A stretch of 64,000 nucleotides of DNA. Origin: Haliea sp. (GTDB lineage: Bacteria; Pseudomonadota; Gammaproteobacteria; Pseudomonadales; Halieaceae). A model generated the notes under the pieces. It was not told the DNA's origin, searched no databases, and saw only the letters and a program-made list of their open reading frames with translations. Location: assembly GCA_002862465.1 (NCBI GenBank), contig PKDD01000093.1, positions 4,167-68,166 on the forward strand, read 5' to 3'. The position numbers were made by a program, and so were the translations under genes. Each line of letters opens with the position of its first letter. Within the stretch, counting starts at the first letter, position 1. Below, piece by piece: positions 15,323-54,150 of the stretch.

Positions 15323-15463
15323 AATCATCTGAAGGCACCCTGACCATACGGTGATGCCCTTCTCGATGGGTCTTGTATCTCATTGATTGATTGACGTTTT
15401 AGTCGCGAGAATCAGTGACACTAACGACTTTCTATAATAAAAAAATACTTGAACAAGTAATCG

Positions 15464-15476
15464 TAAGTCATTGATT
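15464..15476 (-). promoter_or_regulatory. IHF consensus site just 3' of tRNA-His
   Basis: AATCAATGACTTA is a perfect WATCAANNNNTTR match in an AT-rich tract. Confidence 0.5.
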
Positions 15477-49089: not shown

Positions 49090-49545
49090 CTAAAAAATTC
49101 CCATCGATAGACCTGCTGCAAATGCCTGGCCCAAGTCGCTACTCACACGTGCATGTGCTGGACAAAATTTTCCGCGCAAGATAACAGGCGCTGTTGCCGC
49201 TGAAAAGGGGTAACCCGATAGGATTCGTTCGGCCTGCCGTTGCGCGCCACGTCCATCATTGCCGGCACTTATGAGCAAGGCATAGGGTACGACCAATCCC
49301 CTTGCTATCGTGGGATAAAGCGTACGGTCCAAAAAATCTTTCATCGTGCCGCACAGTGCCCCAGAGTTTTCAGCCATAACCAGTAACACCCCATTCGTTT
49401 GCTCGAGGTCCACTGTCCCAGCATCCCACGCACGCATTGCGGTAGCCTCTATTTCAACTTCACGCCGCGCACCTCGCCATGCTGCACTCGCTAGATGCGC
49501 ACAAGTGCCGCTCTGGCTGTGATAGACGATTAACAGGGATTTCAT
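49090..49545 (-). CDS. Flavodoxin-family protein
   Basis: MKSLLIVYHSQSGT, ENSGALCGTMKDFLDR, SAGNDG; ATG 49545. Confidence 0.8.
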   Translation of the reverse strand: MKSLLIVYHSQSGTCAHLASAAWRGARREVEIEATAMRAWDAGTVDLEQTNGVLLVMAENSGALCGTMKDFLDRTLYPTIARGLVVPYALLISAGNDGRGAQRQAERILSGYPFSAATAPVILRGKFCPAHARVSSDLGQAFAAGLSMGIF

Positions 49546-49693
49546 AATACGACACTTTGCAGAATTAACAGTGCGATTTGAACACAGCCCTAATCCTGTG
49601 TCATGCGGCAATGTCCAAAGCCAGGGTAGCTAGCGGATCTTGCGACACCATCAGCGGCTAGGATTAACGGCATACTGCGCGGTATTGCCAGAG

Positions 49694-49899
49694 TTATCCA
49701 CAAGATATTCTGTGGATAACATTGGGGACAGAGATAATTCCATGCTCCATACAAGCTCTTTACGGCATTTAGAATCGAGTCATAGAGGCGCCGCTGAGGA
49801 CAATATTTTATCAATTAAATCATGAATTTACGTTTTTTTTGTAGCGTCGAAAACGCTTGGAGGCTGAATTACACCGAAGTAAATCCATTTTGTGGATAT
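49694..49899. promoter_or_regulatory. DnaA-box cluster with IHF-like site
   Basis: TTATCCACA 49694-49702, TGTGGATAA 49711-49719, TGTGGATAT 49891-49899, AATCATGAATTTA 49818-49830. Confidence 0.65.
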
Positions 49900-49941
49900 C
49901 GTGGGGCAGAAAAACGGGTCCACTGCGACTGCCAAACGGGT

Positions 49942-52113
49942 CTATTTGTGGCTTATTAACCAACAGCAATGCATTTTGCGTTTACGCTGGTAGTCTGGCG
50001 GGAGGGTTTGTACCGTAATATCTTCACACAGAAACTCATCCTTTAACGCTAGGTCAAAGACAAAACCACGTCGGTTGTTGGAGAAATATAGTGCTCCCTC
50101 GTCGCGTAATATACCCATCGCGAGCCGCACAAGTTGCGCGTGGTCTCGCTGCACATCGAAGCTCTCCAACATCGCCTTTGAATTGGAAAACGACGGCGGA
50201 TCAAGCAAGATCAAATCATAATGACCGCGCGAACGGGTGAGCCAAGATTGGCAATCTTCCCTAATCACCGTATTGCGGCCCCCTTCAAGTTTGTTCGCAG
50301 CTAAATTTTTACCCAACCAGGCGAGATAGGTTTTAGACAGGTCGATGCTAGTAGTAGATTGCGCTCCGCCAAGGGCAGCGTGTACCGTTGCGCTGCCGGT
50401 ATAACAAAAAAGATTCAGAAAATCCTTTCCCGCGGCCTCTTGCGCAATCCGTAATCGCAACGGCCGATGATCGAGAAACAAACCGGTATCGAGGTAATCG
50501 TTGAGATTCACCAGCAGCTTTGCCTGCCCCTCTGTGACCATGAGCAATTCACCTTGGCTATCCTGCTTCATGTACTGTTCACTTCCACGCTGGCGACTAC
50601 GCTGCTTATAAACAACTTTTTCAGCAGCAACGCCAAGGGCTCCCGGCAGCGCAGCGCGAATGTCATCTAAGCGACGCTCAGCAGCTTCCACCGATACATT
50701 TTTAGGCGCCTGATACTCAGCGACGTGAACATGGTCACCATAAATATCCACTGCAACAGCATACTCCGGCATATCTGCATCGTAGACACGATAGCAGTCA
50801 ACCTGCTCGCGCTTCACCCAAGAAGAAAGTCGCTTGCGGTTTTTAATAACGCGATTAGCGAACATCATCGCTCCCTCGCTTAAGAGTGGGACTCTCTCTT
50901 CAGCCTTGCGTTGATTTCTTCCCATATCGCGCAATTCATTAACGCTAAGGTCAAACAACAACAGACTGGCGGGCATAGCCCCATTATACAGTGCATAGCG
51001 TTTGTGACTGCGCAAACCGATCGCTCTGCCCAGTTCGAGGTCTGACGTCAGTACGGCAGCATACCAACCTGAAAATTCGCCAAACATAGCCTCGCCCAAT
51101 TGTCGGTAAAGCCCGACAAGTTGTTCTTTTTCGCCGATGCGCTCGCCATAAGGCGGATTACAAACCAGCAAGCCAATAGGCAATGGTCGATGACTGGGCT
51201 TGGTCAATTCCGAAAGCGGCTTACAACTCACACGAACCACTTTTTCCAGTCCAACCCTTGCGATGTTTTCCTGCGCACGACGAATCACCGCAGGATCCCA
51301 ATCATAGCCACGAAATTCTGGTAACTGTGCGGCCCTGCCCCGCTCCGCCCGACTTCTTGCGTCGCTAACAATAGCCGCCCATTGCGGAGCATCATGCGTC
51401 AGAAGATGCTCAAAACCAAAAGCTTTGCGTCCCAGACCCGGGGCGATATCAGCAGACATCATAGCGCCCTCGAGCAACAAGGTTGCTGAGCCGCACATAG
51501 GATCGATAAGTGCACCGCCGCGTGCTGCAATGCCGGGCCAATCGGCCCGCAATAATACTGCTGCCGCAAGATTTTCTTTCAGCGGCGCAACACCGGATTG
51601 TAGTCGATAGCCGCGCTGGTGGAGACTGCCCCCGGAGAGATCAACTGACAGATGAGCGCGATCTCGCACCAAGCGCACATTCAGCCGGACATCAGGATTG
51701 CTGCGATCTACTGAAGGCCGCGATTGGCCAGCGTCCGTAAACCAGTCAACAATGGCATCCTTGCTACGCTGGGCGCCAAACTGCGTGTTGCGAATATTGC
51801 GATTTTCTCCAGAGAAATCAATTGCAATGGTCTTGCTGGGGTCGAAAAACTCCCCCCACTTAATCTCTTTCATGGCCTGATAAAAGGTATCGCCGTCCTT
51901 AGCATCCAGATTCGCCAGCGGCCAAAGAATGCGGTTAGCGAGGCGTGACCATAGGCAGGCTCGGTATGCCAACGCGCGGGGCCCGGTAAAATAGACGCCC
52001 GCCACTGTCTCTCGCGTATCGTCAGTTCCCAGAGAGCTCAATTCAACTGCCAAAAGTGCCTCCAACCCTTTGGGGCAGGTGGCGAACCAAGAATGACTAT
52101 TAATATTACTCAC
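49942..52113 (-). CDS. rlmKL: Bifunctional 23S rRNA methyltransferase RlmL/RlmK
   Basis: THUMP, APLKENLAAA, DPMCGSAT, CNPPYGER; second MTase DTGLFLDHR, NLFCYTG, LDPPSFSNSK. Confidence 0.95.
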   Translation of the reverse strand: MSNINSHSWFATCPKGLEALLAVELSSLGTDDTRETVAGVYFTGPRALAYRACLWSRLANRILWPLANLDAKDGDTFYQAMKEIKWGEFFDPSKTIAIDFSGENRNIRNTQFGAQRSKDAIVDWFTDAGQSRPSVDRSNPDVRLNVRLVRDRAHLSVDLSGGSLHQRGYRLQSGVAPLKENLAAAVLLRADWPGIAARGGALIDPMCGSATLLLEGAMMSADIAPGLGRKAFGFEHLLTHDAPQWAAIVSDARSRAERGRAAQLPEFRGYDWDPAVIRRAQENIARVGLEKVVRVSCKPLSELTKPSHRPLPIGLLVCNPPYGERIGEKEQLVGLYRQLGEAMFGEFSGWYAAVLTSDLELGRAIGLRSHKRYALYNGAMPASLLLFDLSVNELRDMGRNQRKAEERVPLLSEGAMMFANRVIKNRKRLSSWVKREQVDCYRVYDADMPEYAVAVDIYGDHVHVAEYQAPKNVSVEAAERRLDDIRAALPGALGVAAEKVVYKQRSRQRGSEQYMKQDSQGELLMVTEGQAKLLVNLNDYLDTGLFLDHRPLRLRIAQEAAGKDFLNLFCYTGSATVHAALGGAQSTTSIDLSKTYLAWLGKNLAANKLEGGRNTVIREDCQSWLTRSRGHYDLILLDPPSFSNSKAMLESFDVQRDHAQLVRLAMGILRDEGALYFSNNRRGFVFDLALKDEFLCEDITVQTLPPDYQRKRKMHCCWLISHK

Positions 52114-52228: not shown

Positions 52229-53356
52229 TTAGGACGCAGGGACTAAGCCTGTCTCCAACCTAAAGATACGCTGCAAAATATTGCGCCATTCGGAATACTG
52301 AGAGTCCAATGTGCCGCTTAGCTCAAAGACCGCGCCGCTCACGTCCATTACCGTAGGCGCAACCTCATTGTTGAAGCCTAGTGCTAATCCAACCAGATCC
52401 TGCTCGTGAATCTTGGACCATTTGTAGGTGTTGTAGCTGCGCTCGAGCGCAGCAAAAGACCCCCGACGGCCTTGCGGGCCCCTGCTAGCCACGCGCTGCT
52501 CATACTCGCTCTGATAAATCGCCTGCTCTGCACCGTACTGACGCCATAAGTTGTAGGTGGACGCCATCTCTTCACTGAGCCGCTCATACTGTTCATCGAC
52601 CGTATCGATAAACAGGTATTCTTGGTTCCTAATTCGGATGACTCGAGCCATCATCGGATCATCCTCTGCCGGAAAACGCGCTAGCATATACTCTCCTTCT
52701 GGCGTTTGCGTTAAATATGGTCCGAAAACCGTTGGCGCCAATTGAACCGCATATCGCATGAGGGCAATGTCTCGTATCGTCGCCAACTGCTTTGCGCTCT
52801 TTTGCCGGAGCACCGCGGCAAGGTCATCGGCGATTTGCTGGTAGAGTTCCAGATAGGGGTCTCCTGGCACGCTTACAGGGTAATCCGTAGACTTTGTCGA
52901 GCCAGAATACATCTGGTTCAACCATTCCACACCGCTGGCATCGCGGGCATTGATTCGCAGTTGGAGGCGCAGACCATCAGACTGCAGTATGGTGCCAGTG
53001 ACTAACAGCTCTGACGAATCGAGTACCTCCGGCAGCACCCTTACAACGCCCCAATCGCCTGACTCAATAAACACCTGCCGCAATACGACCGGCATGTATT
53101 TGGCCTCAGCCTCACGAATGTCTGGAAAAATACCCCGTTTACTGTGGGTCGATTGATCCACTGGAATACCCGGATCAAACACCACCAGACCGACATCAAC
53201 AAGCGACTGCTCGTTGTAGCCATTGTCCGCGGCCATTAATGGGGAAGCGCACCACCCGATGGCAATGACAGCCAAGATCGAGCGCCGCCATGCCTGAAAC
53301 AGGACTAGCGCGATTTGGTCGTACATACCCTGCCTCGAGTCAGCGTTTCTTGACAT
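52229..53356 (-). CDS. Conserved hypothetical exported protein
   Basis: 375 aa ORF with signal-peptide-like segment ending PLMAA; start may be 53326. Confidence 0.7.
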   Translation of the reverse strand: MSRNADSRQGMYDQIALVLFQAWRRSILAVIAIGWCASPLMAADNGYNEQSLVDVGLVVFDPGIPVDQSTHSKRGIFPDIREAEAKYMPVVLRQVFIESGDWGVVRVLPEVLDSSELLVTGTILQSDGLRLQLRINARDASGVEWLNQMYSGSTKSTDYPVSVPGDPYLELYQQIADDLAAVLRQKSAKQLATIRDIALMRYAVQLAPTVFGPYLTQTPEGEYMLARFPAEDDPMMARVIRIRNQEYLFIDTVDEQYERLSEEMASTYNLWRQYGAEQAIYQSEYEQRVASRGPQGRRGSFAALERSYNTYKWSKIHEQDLVGLALGFNNEVAPTVMDVSGAVFELSGTLDSQYSEWRNILQRIFRLETGLVPAS

Positions 53357-54030
53357 TCAAATCCACTCTCGCCGCGCTCGAATCGGTTATAAACCCGGTT
53401 AAGTGAAAACGGAAAGGACACCTGGCTAGACACCACTGTGGTCGCAACAAGCAGTTTTTGTCCGGCAGCCCCCATTGTTATTATATGCTGAATACTCAGT
53501 CCCTCCGGTAGTCGCAATTCAAACACCAACTGATGTCCATTCCAGCCACAAAGTTCAGTCCCGAAAGGTGTCTCGACCATATGCATCTCACCCGGATAAA
53601 ACTCACAAGTCCAAGAAAAGTCTTCCTCGCGCTCCACGCTGATTTTGTACCTATCCTGATCAATCTCCAGCAGAGGCGACTGTGTAATGAGATCAGTAAT
53701 TCGTACCAATCCCAGAACGGAGGAACTGCTATTTGGCCCAGCACTATTCCTCATCACCTCGCCACCTGACGGTCGCCGGCGTCCCTCGCTCTGGGCGCGC
53801 CGCTGTGCCTGTCGCGTTAGGTCGCGTGCCAGCACATCCAGTTTTTCCTGAGCGCTATCACTGAGACTGTAATCCATTTCCCAAGAGCCACTAAAATTAA
53901 CCGCCTTTAGATTCTCGCGCTGCAATGGACGTTTTTTTTCCACCGAGGTGCTGGCGCAGCCAGCTATTAATAGCGCCAACATCACAAAAAGTGCGACCGC
54001 AATAGGAAATGATATAAGAAATCTAAACAT
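53305..54030 (-). CDS. Hypothetical lipoprotein
   Basis: MFRFL...LLIAGC lipobox from ATG 54030. Confidence 0.65.
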   Translation of the reverse strand: MFRFLISFPIAVALFVMLALLIAGCASTSVEKKRPLQRENLKAVNFSGSWEMDYSLSDSAQEKLDVLARDLTRQAQRRAQSEGRRRPSGGEVMRNSAGPNSSSSVLGLVRITDLITQSPLLEIDQDRYKISVEREEDFSWTCEFYPGEMHMVETPFGTELCGWNGHQLVFELRLPEGLSIQHIITMGAAGQKLLVATTVVSSQVSFPFSLNRVYNRFERGESGFECQETLTRGRVCTTKSR

Positions 54031-54150
54031 GTCTACGCAGAGTGTAACCCAAGGCATTCCATCTGAGCGAGTGCCCCATAAATAATGCCTCAAAGAGTTA
54101 GAGGTCGGTGCCAACTCAGCCACATGGAGTGGTACCCGATACGCGCCGAT

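Follow-up and report, generated by a model that had tools for sequence, protein, structure and literature searches.

Just downstream of rlmKL in Haliea sp. and in its relatives lies a non-coding element of ~210 bp that is made up of four DnaA-type sites and one IHF-type site, all of them predicted from sequence. Comparison between genomes has shown that, throughout a bacterial family, these predicted DnaA-type and IHF-type sites keep to distances that are either fixed or helically phased, and we consider it probable (roughly 0.7) that DnaA and IHF would assemble on the element and so act on the DnaA pool, and not on a nearby promoter. In the literature that was searched, E. coli is the only bacterium in which loci that convert DnaA between the ATP and the ADP form have been worked out, their sequence relatives are reported only at the uvrB and mutH positions of close gammaproteobacteria including Vibrio cholerae, and no such locus has been described outside the relatives of E. 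coli and Vibrio. The element is a clearly delimited candidate in a distant and ecologically important family, the Halieaceae being abundant coastal marine gammaproteobacteria.

The element and its sites

The DNA analysed, here called the window, is a 64,000-nt stretch of Haliea sp. (Halieaceae) from contig PKDD01000093.1 of assembly GCA_002862465.1. The gap that holds the element, its sites and the two flanking genes are as follows.

49090-49545, minus strand: flavodoxin-like gene, downstream context outside the element (Pfam PF00258, E=5e-4, below the gathering score)
49546-49941: non-coding gap between the stop codon of rlmKL and the ATG of the flavodoxin-like gene
49694-49702, plus strand: predicted DnaA box I, perfect TTATCCACA, left arm of the inverted pair; with its flanks AGTTATCCACA
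49703-49710, no strand: spacer between boxes I and II, 8 bp, AGATATTC, fixed in length and free in sequence
49711-49719, minus strand: predicted DnaA box II, perfect, reading TGTGGATAA on the plus strand, head-to-head with box I
49723-49731, minus strand: box III', a degenerate DnaA-box-like 9-mer, TGGGGACAG, 3 bp past box II and in the same orientation
49732-49805, no strand: linker between core and IHF site, unconserved in sequence and constrained in length
49806-49830, plus strand: predicted IHF site, with an upstream T-tract at 49806-49809 and the 13-mer core AATCATGAATTTA at 49818-49830
49833-49844, plus strand: conserved T-run and (A/G)TAG directly 3' of the IHF core, TTTTTTTTGTAG
49845-49890, no strand: variable linker between IHF site and box C, found in two length classes, of which the window has the 73-bp class
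49891-49899, minus strand: box C, a predicted DnaA box with one mismatch, reading TGTGGATAT on the plus strand, in the orientation of boxes II and III'
49942-52113, minus strand: rlmKL (NCBIfam NF008748, 940 bits), with its stop codon 43 bp from box C

The inverted pair (49694-49719) reads GTTATCCACA-N8-TGTGGATAAC, its arms being perfectly complementary over 10-12 nt around a loop of 6-8 nt, and together with box III' it forms a three-box core, TTATCCACA-N8-TGTGGATAA-CAT-TGGGGACAG. A first-pass annotation of this DNA had reported two perfect DnaA boxes in inverted orientation with an 8-nt spacer; these are found exactly where it placed them and are the only perfect boxes in the 64 kb. The IHF-like site with one mismatch at 49818-49830 and the third box with one mismatch at 49891-49899 that it had listed are likewise present, and both are conserved in the family, the latter as box C. 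It had furthermore described G-rich 9-mers following the boxes, of which the one after box II is indeed conserved, in the register TGGGGACAG, whereas GTGGGGCAG, which follows the third box, is unconserved.

The 13-mer core of the IHF site, AATCATGAATTTA, has one mismatch to WATCAANNNNTTR, and the T-run with (A/G)TAG that follows it probably falls within the ~34-bp footprint of IHF. Box III' is two mismatches from the site TGGGATCAG of E. coli oriC. The extended arms of the pair, GTTATCCACAG, are the flanks of proven E. coli DnaA sites, and the flanks of box II (CTGTGGATAAC) match those of box II of E. coli DARS1 and of box 2 of datA.

In the window the two perfect DnaA boxes (I and II) compare with 0.53 expected, at least two being reached in 9 of 100 shuffles, and DnaA boxes with at most one mismatch number 19 against 12.5±3.6, which is no enrichment across the window as a whole. 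IHF matches with one mismatch number 70 against 53 expected, so a single such site is unremarkable alone and the weight given to the IHF site comes from its conservation only.

Conservation across the Halieaceae

The family comprises 11 Halieaceae genomes and 37 metagenome contigs, giving 45 distinct sequences in all, with RlmKL proteins that are 56-87% identical. The 11 relatives were found via RlmKL alone (74-87% identity), independently of the pattern, and every one of the loci found in this way keeps all of the sites. The metagenome contigs were drawn from matches to the bare palindrome (n=120), 37 of which are this element, all adjoining rlmKL, and none of the other 83 repeats the layout of core, IHF site and box. 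One of those 83, a low-GC locus with many boxes (L030), did pass a loose filter. In Porticoccus, where RlmKL is 53% identical, there are no boxes after rlmKL. Conservation in relatives had been put forward in the first-pass annotation as a check on its proposal, and the layout proves to be kept in the 11 genomes and the 37 contigs; a chance origin of the predicted cluster is excluded by its conservation across the 45 distinct sequences.

Within the family the boxes and the IHF site stand out as conserved islands amid unconserved DNA, the information content being ~2 bits in the boxes and in the WATCA and TTR parts of the IHF site and ~0 in the linkers. Of the 11 relatives found via RlmKL, 10 have boxes I and II without a mismatch and the eleventh (L008) has one mismatch in one arm; the spacer between the boxes measures 8 bp in every one of these independently found relatives, as it does in the window. 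The sequence of this spacer is free to vary, with 33 distinct 8-mers among the 45 sequences, and these show a tendency to dyad symmetry, three of the 33 being perfect palindromes. Box III' reads TGGGGA(C/T)AG in the window and in 11 of the 11 independently found relatives; L101 reads TGGGCATAA at this position. Box C, in the form TGTGGATA(T/G), is kept in nearly all family members at 180 or 190 bp from box II, and in divergent members it is TGTGGACAG.

When the IHF consensus is scored as WATCARNNNNTTR, 26 of 44 sequences match all nine specified positions at the same offset and in the same orientation. The typical form of the site in the family is AATCAATGACTTA; its WATCA and TTR parts are well conserved, its NNNN part poorly so. 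In the linker that leads from the IHF site to box C, comparison of the family sequences revealed no conserved Fis-like block, and an AT-rich dyad is found there in the 83-bp length class only.

The distances between the sites are also constrained. The start of box I and that of the IHF site are 124 bp apart in 30 of 44 sequences, 123 or 125 bp in a further 10 and 113-114 bp in three, such that the distance from pair to IHF site is 124±1 bp in 40 of the 44. Fifteen sequences have 73-74 bp from the start of the IHF site to that of box C and 29 have 82-85 bp, and the changes in length come in steps of ~10 bp, which is one helical turn. The centre of the IHF site is 71 bp away from that of box C; on the other side the distances to boxes III' and II are 97-109 bp, the larger figure being that for box II. 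Moving the IHF site of DARS2 by 5 or 10 bp has been found to have phase- and distance-dependent effects (PMC4245941).

Gene context and chromosomal position

In every family member the element has rlmKL as its neighbour and lies just 3' of it, and neither uvrB nor mutH is among its neighbours. On the other side many relatives carry a convergent gene, here termed gene X, between the element and the flavodoxin-like gene, and in these carriers the TAG stop codon of gene X abuts box I, with the element lying between two convergent 3' ends. Gene X has repeatedly been deleted, with C-terminal remnants left behind and box I spared each time. Where gene X is present the element is ~1 kb from the promoter region of the flavodoxin-like gene and is conserved just as strictly. 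The position of the element between the 3' ends of convergent genes implies that control of the flavodoxin-like gene is not its conserved role, and the earlier suggestion that DnaA controls the flavodoxin promoter does not hold as a conserved function, since gene X intervenes in many relatives.

In genomes that lack gene X, box I is 25-190 bp from the ATG of the flavodoxin-like gene; in L120 and L127 the distance is 25-35 bp, and DnaA must also affect transcription there. The flavodoxin-like protein has no PDB relative by sequence. An analogy with MioC, the DnaA-repressed flavodoxin adjoining oriC, was considered and rejected, as the downstream protein has neither similarity to E. coli MioC nor a PDB sequence relative. 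A gene for a LysR-type regulator is found 1.3 kb from the element in the window.

Consensus scans of the gap revealed neither a terminator nor a promoter-like site, and in particular no intrinsic terminator between the rlmKL stop codon and the element in the window, and when the 3' region of rlmKL was folded it gave a small hairpin only, which is poorly conserved. Metatranscriptome contigs, which are of low depth, stop at gene borders and none lies within the gap, a pattern that is suggestive at most. A coding role for the gap was rejected, the open reading frames at 49590-49814 and 49640-49825 falling in unconserved linkers, as was a structured or small RNA, there being no Rfam match at E<=1 and no compensating change for the arm mismatch of L008.

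The possibility that the locus is oriC is ruled out, as GC skew does not switch and an AT-rich unwinding element, an origin-linked gene and a GATC cluster are all missing. GC skew is negative over all 64 kb, homologues of DnaA, DnaN, RecF, L34, MnmG, RsmG and MioC are absent from the window, the gap holds one GATC against 1.5 expected, and the element offers no more than four boxes and a T-run of 8 nt. These results agree with the first-pass description of a gap 3' of rlmKL that has no dnaA, gidA or GATC array nearby and, as far as the window shows, lies far from oriC. In a complete relative genome the locus is at 1.59 Mb of a 3.72-Mb record (0.43), on the strand with positive GC skew; provided that the deposited record begins close to oriC, as is assumed here, the locus would appear to be late-replicating.

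A putative assembly of DnaA and IHF

In the assembly that we propose, two DnaA molecules would bind the perfect boxes I and II head-to-head and a third would join them head-to-tail on the weak box III', 3 bp off. IHF, bound ~100 bp away, would turn the DNA through a U-turn and so bring a fourth DnaA, on box C, against the core complex, and the resulting strained multimer would alter the nucleotide state of DnaA. In a reaction that ran as in DARS2, ADP would be released from ADP-DnaA, which would then rebind ATP, with the looped-in DnaA on box C taking the stimulating role that Fis has in E. coli and the late-replicating position timing the reactivation to the end of a replication round. This direction is put forward tentatively, at somewhat less than an even chance; sequence alone cannot choose between the release of ADP (DARS) and the hydrolysis of ATP (datA), and DARS2-like reactivation is only slightly preferred to datA-like inactivation. 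The first-pass proposal of a cis-acting DnaA control locus of the datA or DARS type finds partial agreement, in the conserved islands, the phased spacings and the DARS-like orientation with its 3-bp gap, but not in the 8-bp spacer or in Fis, for which no conserved site is seen in the family.

Were the element to work instead as datA does, which we regard as slightly less likely, oligomers of ATP-DnaA would form on box C and on boxes II and III', a bend made by IHF would bring the two arms into contact, and hydrolysis of ATP or titration would restrain initiation. The geometry agrees with datA about as closely as with DARS2, the distances from IHF site to boxes being 71 and 97-109 bp as against 67 and 95 bp in datA and the orientations identical. 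Further points in this direction are the pairing of a weak box with a strong one 3 bp away, as datA box 7 is paired with box 2, the ancestral-looking context at the 3' ends of two convergent genes and the fact that no conserved Fis site is seen in the family. Furthermore box III' resembles, with two mismatches, the weak oriC site TGGGATCAG, which prefers ATP-DnaA, and this likeness would favour a datA-like reaction. However, conservation of the opposite-facing box I is no less strict than that of box II, whereas its counterpart in datA, box 4, is merely stimulatory, and the weak box is on the other arm from that in datA. The locus also appears to be late-replicating, to judge from the complete relative genome, where it sits 0.43 of the way along the record, whilst datA is close to oriC and its early duplication is thought to matter. 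It would seem less probable still that the element is a transcriptional device, with DnaA and IHF regulating the flavodoxin-like gene or forming a roadblock or insulator against read-through from rlmKL (and gene X). DnaA represses several E. coli promoters, no intrinsic terminator is seen from the rlmKL stop codon to the element in the window, the low-depth metatranscriptome contigs end at gene borders with none in the gap, and without gene X box I is 25-190 bp upstream of the flavodoxin-like ATG. Such a device would nevertheless need neither IHF at a fixed 124 bp nor a far-side box 180-190 bp away; the gap has no promoter-like site, the distance from element to ATG is unconserved, and conservation is as strict where gene X puts ~1 kb between the element and the promoter region.

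Two further readings would each be a considerable surprise. By analogy with the 'A site' of plasmid R6K, a hairpin that in the work of Masai and Arai reportedly lets DnaA load DnaB and assemble a primosome, the pair when unwound might fold into a single-strand hairpin with a duplex DnaA box as its stem, at which DnaB could be loaded for priming or fork restart. The complementarity of the arms over 10-12 nt and the three perfectly palindromic spacers among the 33 would fit such a fold, yet it leaves unexplained the IHF site, box III', box C and the helical phasing, which are properties of duplex DNA; the arm mismatch of L008 is uncompensated, and the outer symmetry of the spacers is also expected from the flank preference of DnaA boxes (TTATCCACAG), all of which makes this fold highly improbable. 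It is similarly hard to credit that the pair serves some unrelated dimeric regulator as an operator and happens to resemble two DnaA boxes, or that the cluster arose by chance, even though dyad symmetry about an 8-bp centre is typical of dimeric regulators and a LysR-type gene lies 1.3 kb away. Against this, both arms are the perfect 9-mer DnaA consensus with the flanks of proven E. coli sites, and the conservation of a lone half-site (box C) and of a degenerate half-site (III') suits a protein that binds as a monomer.

To return to an assembly locus acting on the DnaA pool, its most specific form is a conjecture that we would expect to fail rather oftener than to succeed, namely that the Halieaceae have independently evolved a catalyst of DnaA nucleotide exchange, with a DARS-like core of 8-bp spacer, an IHF loop that delivers the DnaA of a distal box in place of Fis, and a late-replichore locus that times the next initiation. 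If true, it would take DARS-type systems for the first time beyond the relatives of E. coli and Vibrio and offer a natural test of the head-to-head model. The element would also provide a second, independent system in which to follow the effect on the bound nucleotide of IHF looping and of contacts between head-to-head DnaA molecules. The ~45 natural variants already reveal the constraints, which are an 8-bp pair, a weak box at +3 bp, an IHF site at 124 bp and a fourth box one or two helical phases further on, and they suggest that such loci can be recognised from their architecture without recourse to homology. Should the element have another function instead, its strict phasing would still mark an unexplained DnaA-IHF nucleoprotein complex.

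Comparison with known systems

Clusters of DnaA boxes outside oriC restrain initiation in Bacillus subtilis and Streptomyces coelicolor, according to the work cited within PMC5742627. Like the element, these titration clusters are chromosomal groups of DnaA boxes outside oriC. To our knowledge they are looser, and we know of no phased IHF site or defined head-to-head core in them. The left half of E. coli oriC (R1, an IHF site, R5M and weak sites) combines a strong box, IHF and cooperative weak sites as the element does, although the boxes of oriC form two head-to-tail arrays whereas the pair in the element is head-to-head.

In datA a single IHF site lies between strong boxes that face the same direction, 67 and 95 bp from boxes 2 and 3, and when datA is flipped the orientations of its boxes and IHF site are identical to those of the element. 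There is also an inverted partner box on the far arm, boxes 3 and 4 of datA forming an inverted pair, and the essential weak box 7 lies 3 bp from box 2 much as the weak box III' lies 3 bp from the strong box II, head-to-tail. The weak box of datA is, however, on the opposite arm from box III', and no weak box is conserved beside box C. The essential boxes of datA all point one way, the opposite box 4 being only stimulatory (PMC5742627); this box is dispensable and has a 3-bp spacing, whereas the inverted pair is the most conserved part of the element. Whilst datA lies between convergent gene ends, those of glyVXY and queG (PMC5742627), as does the element where gene X is present, it is near oriC and the element seems to be late-replicating.

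The core of DARS is defined by head-to-head boxes I and II and a box III in the orientation of II (PMC6868365; PMC11724364). Read from NC_000913, E. coli DARS1 is TTATCCACT-N5-TGTGGATAA-CCA-TGTGTATTA and DARS2 is TTATTCACC-N5-TGTGGATAG-AGT-TGTGAAGAA, and the element has the same order, with I forward, II reverse and III reverse, and the same 3-bp gap between II and III. It differs in the spacer between I and II, which is 8 bp as against 5 bp in both DARS1 and DARS2, a difference that would turn the two boxes ~100 degrees relative to the E. coli arrangement, and it shares neither synteny nor an alignable sequence with the uvrB and mutH loci.

DARS1, which lies between bioD and uvrB, resembles the element in the order and orientation of its boxes, in its perfect box II and in the flanks AGTTATCCAC...TGTGGATAAC, and its box III occupies the position of box III' (TGTGGATAA-CCA-TGTGTATTA in DARS1). 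It is downstream of a gene on the same strand, like the element in genomes without gene X, but it needs no IHF, whereas in the element the IHF site is strictly kept and a distal box is present.

In DARS2 the IHF site is essential, and its phase and distance matter; the element has a predicted IHF site that is likewise ~100 bp off on the side of box III, although its start is 124 bp from that of box I as compared with 93-109 bp in E. coli DARS2 (IBS1-2). Boxes I and II are perfect in the element and weak in DARS2, and beyond the IHF site the element has the conserved DnaA box C where DARS2 has the essential Fis sites FBS2-3. DARS2 is next to mutH and the element next to rlmKL, with homology between the two confined to the boxes, yet both are non-coding, and DARS2 is far from oriC, as the element also appears to be.

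Site map of the intergenic gap

The element, a non-coding cluster of DnaA-type and IHF-type sites of ~210 bp, lies 3' of rlmKL in a gap of 396 bp (49546-49941 in the window) that is bounded on one side by the rlmKL stop codon and on the other by the ATG with which a small flavodoxin-like gene begins. Re-reading the sequence confirmed all the coordinates of the boxes and the IHF site in the first-pass annotation.

49942-52113, minus strand: rlmKL (NCBIfam equivalog, 940 bits)
49090-49545, minus strand: small flavodoxin-like gene (Pfam Flavodoxin_1, E=5e-4, below threshold)
49694-49702, plus strand reading TTATCCACA: box I of the inverted DnaA-box pair, separated from box II by an 8 bp spacer
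49711-49719, plus strand reading TGTGGATAA: box II of the pair
49723-49731, plus strand reading TGGGGACAG: box III', a degenerate DnaA-box-like 9-mer 3 bp after box II
49806-49809, read on the plus strand: T-tract
49818-49830, plus strand reading AATCATGAATTTA: IHF-like 13-mer
49833-49844, read on the plus strand: run of eight Ts, then GTAG
49891-49899, plus strand reading TGTGGATAT: box C, the distal box

Beyond the flavodoxin-like gene, whose protein has no PDB relative by sequence, are genes for a hotdog thioesterase and a LysR regulator, leuCD, asd, fimV, truA and trpFBA, and on the rlmKL side of the gap are LLM oxidoreductases, an aminotransferase and tamAB. Two overlapping minus-strand ORFs just upstream of rlmKL, at 52229-53356 (375 aa) and 53305-54123 (272 aa), match no Pfam or NCBIfam family.

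The only two perfect DnaA boxes in the 64 kb form this inverted pair, 8 bp apart, where 0.53 are expected and two or more occurred in 9 of 100 shuffles. Boxes with at most one mismatch are not enriched window-wide (19 vs 12.5±3.6), and one-mismatch IHF matches number 70 against 53 expected, a single match being uninformative by itself. The case for the element therefore depends on comparison with relatives. Three IHF-consensus matches also cluster in the intergenic stretch 15376-15476, and one of them, a perfect match, reads AATCAATGACTTA, which is also the consensus 13-mer of the element's family.

An origin of replication was rejected for the gap, which holds one GATC, the window having no switch in GC skew and no origin-linked genes. 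The gap has no match in Rfam, no terminator or promoter consensus was found in it, and low-depth metatranscriptome contigs stop at 49545 and start at 49938, with none within the gap.

Conservation and distribution

A search with RlmKL, taking one genome per species, gave 11 loci from Halieaceae (Halioglobus and Haliea), in which RlmKL is 74-87% identical to that of the window, and one from Porticoccus, in which it is 53% identical. Conservation in relatives had been proposed as a check on the element, and the same three boxes do follow rlmKL in all 11 of the Halieaceae loci; none follow it in Porticoccus. Alignment of the 11 intergenic regions with that of the window reveals three conserved islands in an otherwise unconserved stretch, namely CGATATCCACAAAA, then CTACAAAAA...TA......TGATT, which matches exactly the positions specified by the IHF consensus, and CTGTCCCCAAnnTTATCCACAG......TGTGGATAACT.

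Metagenome contigs scanned with the bare palindrome TTATCCACA-N8-TGTGGATAA yielded at least 120 loci. Among the matches listed, 36 of 120 have TGGGGA 3 nt past box II, with one further locus (L101) having TGGGCATAA there instead, and RlmKL and/or the flavodoxin-like protein is encoded beside the palindrome in all 37 of these and in no other, the lowest RlmKL identity to the window being 56%. Since family matches all adjoin these genes, the element is, judged from sequence, a single orthologous locus in a sizeable marine clade.

Other matches to the palindrome (L022, L025, L028, L051, L063, L079 and others) are dense arrays, e.g. TGTGGATAATGTGGATAATGTGGATAT, that look like origin or dnaA regions of unrelated organisms, at least one of this type coming from a human gut metagenome (L062); in L065 (143-326) the palindrome occurs three times in 180 bp with identical flanking sequence every time. 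A block of ~25 nt, GGCTTGTGCCGTTAGTGCCYGCCAAC, is found around or just past the rlmKL stop, between it and box C, in L020, L024, L032, L050, L087 and others. It is kept whether coding or not and has diverged in the window (49905-49941); just a small hairpin is predicted for it, and a T-run follows in some genomes only.

A 340-aa NADP-dependent-oxidoreductase-like gene, gene X, is present in L004-L008, L011 and many metagenome loci; it runs convergent to rlmKL with its TAG stop abutting box I and the flavodoxin-like gene beyond it, which places the element between two 3' ends. Other lineages lack gene X or keep a C-terminal remnant of 39-40 residues beside box I (L027, L046, L109); a remnant in L004 (6410-6748) is a 112-aa ORF. 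The deletions always end before the DnaA palindrome, and repeated losses of gene X seem to have spared the element. Where gene X is absent, box I stands 25 to 190 bp from the flavodoxin-like ATG. DnaA control of the flavodoxin promoter, as earlier suggested, is therefore not the conserved function, because gene X intervenes in some genomes and the distance varies in others, though with only 25-35 bp to the ATG bound DnaA must influence flavodoxin-like transcription too. Upstream of the flavodoxin-like gene a block at 49574-49605, whose conservation is limited to the clade that lacks gene X and which includes the dyad ACACAG-N8-CTGTGT, may be the promoter or operator of that gene.

Spacing and the individual sites

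Spacing and consensus figures refer to 44-45 distinct tabulated sequences (window, relatives and metagenome matches listed). From the start of box I to that of the IHF 13-mer, 30 sequences have 124 bp, 10 have 123 or 125 bp, three have 113-114 bp and one, a weak case, has 122 bp; from the IHF site to the start of box C, 15 have 73-74 bp and 29 have 82-85 bp. All three sequences whose core-to-IHF arm is 10 bp shorter belong to the 83-bp class of the IHF-to-box C arm and, because such changes compensate, box II to box C is 180 or 190 bp throughout. The linkers have almost zero information content; fixed lengths, free sequence and helical-turn steps are what proteins assembled stereospecifically on duplex DNA would be expected to leave. 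About 20 nt before box C, the IHF/box C linker of L020, L050, L069, L087, L118 and others holds an AT-rich dyad (AAAAcCACTgTAtAtAcAGGG in consensus); this dyad is limited to the 83-bp class, is not seen in the window's clade, and could be an additional protein site.

Scored as WATCARNNNNTTR, the IHF-like site matches at 9/9 specified positions in 26 sequences and at 8/9 in 15, always in the same orientation, and its most frequent form is AATCAATGACTTA. Conservation is high at W-A-T-C-A and T-R and low at the four N positions, and a T-tract ~10 bp upstream is also conserved. IHF sites of the H' type are known for such a profile with an upstream T-tract.

The spacer between boxes I and II is 8 bp in the metagenome set because the pattern searched for requires it; the window and the 11 loci retrieved with RlmKL show that length independently. 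Spacer sequences vary (33 distinct 8-mers in 45 family sequences) with some dyad symmetry, three of the 33 (GAATATTC, GGCCGGCC and GGTCGACC) being perfectly palindromic and giving 26-bp perfect palindromes; DnaA flank preference or hairpin/cruciform formation could be the cause.

Box III' (TGGGGACAG), in the orientation of box II, 3 bp away and three mismatches from the DnaA consensus, is a putative DnaA site. DARS1 has its box III at exactly the same place relative to box II (TGTGGATAA-CCA-TGTGTATTA), and TGGGCATAA, at this position in L101, is two mismatches from consensus. Box C in divergent family members is TGTGGACAG. The oriC of E. coli includes TGGGATCAG, which we take to be I2, a weak site preferring ATP-DnaA.

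Proposed function

The comparison shows DnaA-type and IHF-type sites that are conserved with phased spacing and do not depend on any promoter. DnaA would bind strongly at boxes I, II and C and cooperatively at III', IHF would fold the DNA so as to bring the DnaA bound at box C into contact with the core complex, and the assembled complex would alter the nucleotide bound to DnaA. DARS-like ADP release is the direction we favour, with a probability of about 0.4, because the head-to-head pair, a hallmark of DARS, is the part most strictly kept, because the IHF site is on the box III side, and because, in a relative with a complete genome, the locus is found 1.59 Mb into the 3.72-Mb record, on the strand whose GC skew is positive, which would be a late position in the replichore provided that the record begins near oriC.

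The geometry of the box/IHF distances, the weak box resembling an oriC site and the convergent gene context would instead suit a role like that of datA, the E. coli locus for DnaA-ATP hydrolysis, yet the inverted box that the element keeps so strictly is dispensable in datA, and we consider such a role possible but doubtful. Transcriptional roles would seem unlikely given the two flanking 3' ends where gene X is present and the inconstant distance to the flavodoxin-like ATG, and it is highly improbable that the element is a hairpin site in single-stranded DNA at which a primosome assembles or, equally, that it binds a regulator other than DnaA.

Comparison with known systems

The layouts of DARS1, DARS2 and datA were taken from NC_000913. 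Both DARS cores, defined by oppositely oriented boxes I and II plus box III (PMC6868365), run from a forward box I across 5 bp to a reverse box II and then across 3 bp to a reverse box III. The element shares this order, the orientation, the II-III gap and even the flanks (AGTTATCCAC...TGTGGATAAC), but its I-II spacer is 8 bp rather than 5 bp, which gives the pair a span of 26 bp and a rotation of ~100 degrees relative to the E. coli arrangement. On its box III side DARS2 requires sites for both IHF and Fis, whose effects vary with phase and distance (PMC4245941, PMC11724364). Counted from the start of box I, the IHF 13-mers of DARS2 begin at 93 and 109 bp and that of the element at 124 bp; past the IHF site the element has a DnaA box, and no conserved Fis-like block is seen there. 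A second trio in the layout of a DARS core, TTATCCCAG-CTTTC-TGTGGATAA-CAT-GGTGTAAGA, lies upstream of mutH in E. coli K-12 (L014, 2453-2490), ~300 bp from the DARS2 core, and is probably boxes IV-VI. Boxes IV-VI near DARS2 were reportedly found dispensable by Kasho et al. in 2014.

In datA a single IHF site is accompanied by strong boxes in the same direction, centred 67 and 95 bp away; when datA is flipped, box and IHF orientations match those of the element, whose corresponding distances are 71 and 97-109 bp. Furthermore, the weak box 7 of datA is 3 bp from box 2, its inverted box 4, beside box 3, is merely stimulatory, and datA too lies between convergent gene ends (PMC5742627). Taken together these likenesses make the element, as far as sequence can tell, a hybrid, with a DARS-like core within a datA-like box-IHF-box frame.

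DARS-like sequences in the literature searched were found for E. coli relatives and Vibrio cholerae only, at the uvrB and mutH positions, with looser DnaA-box clusters mentioned for Bacillus and Streptomyces (PMC5742627), and in the literature searched no description was found of such a locus in Halieaceae or beside rlmKL. The logic of this candidate control locus is thus a known one, with a different location and core spacing and a DnaA box in the position of the Fis sites of DARS2.
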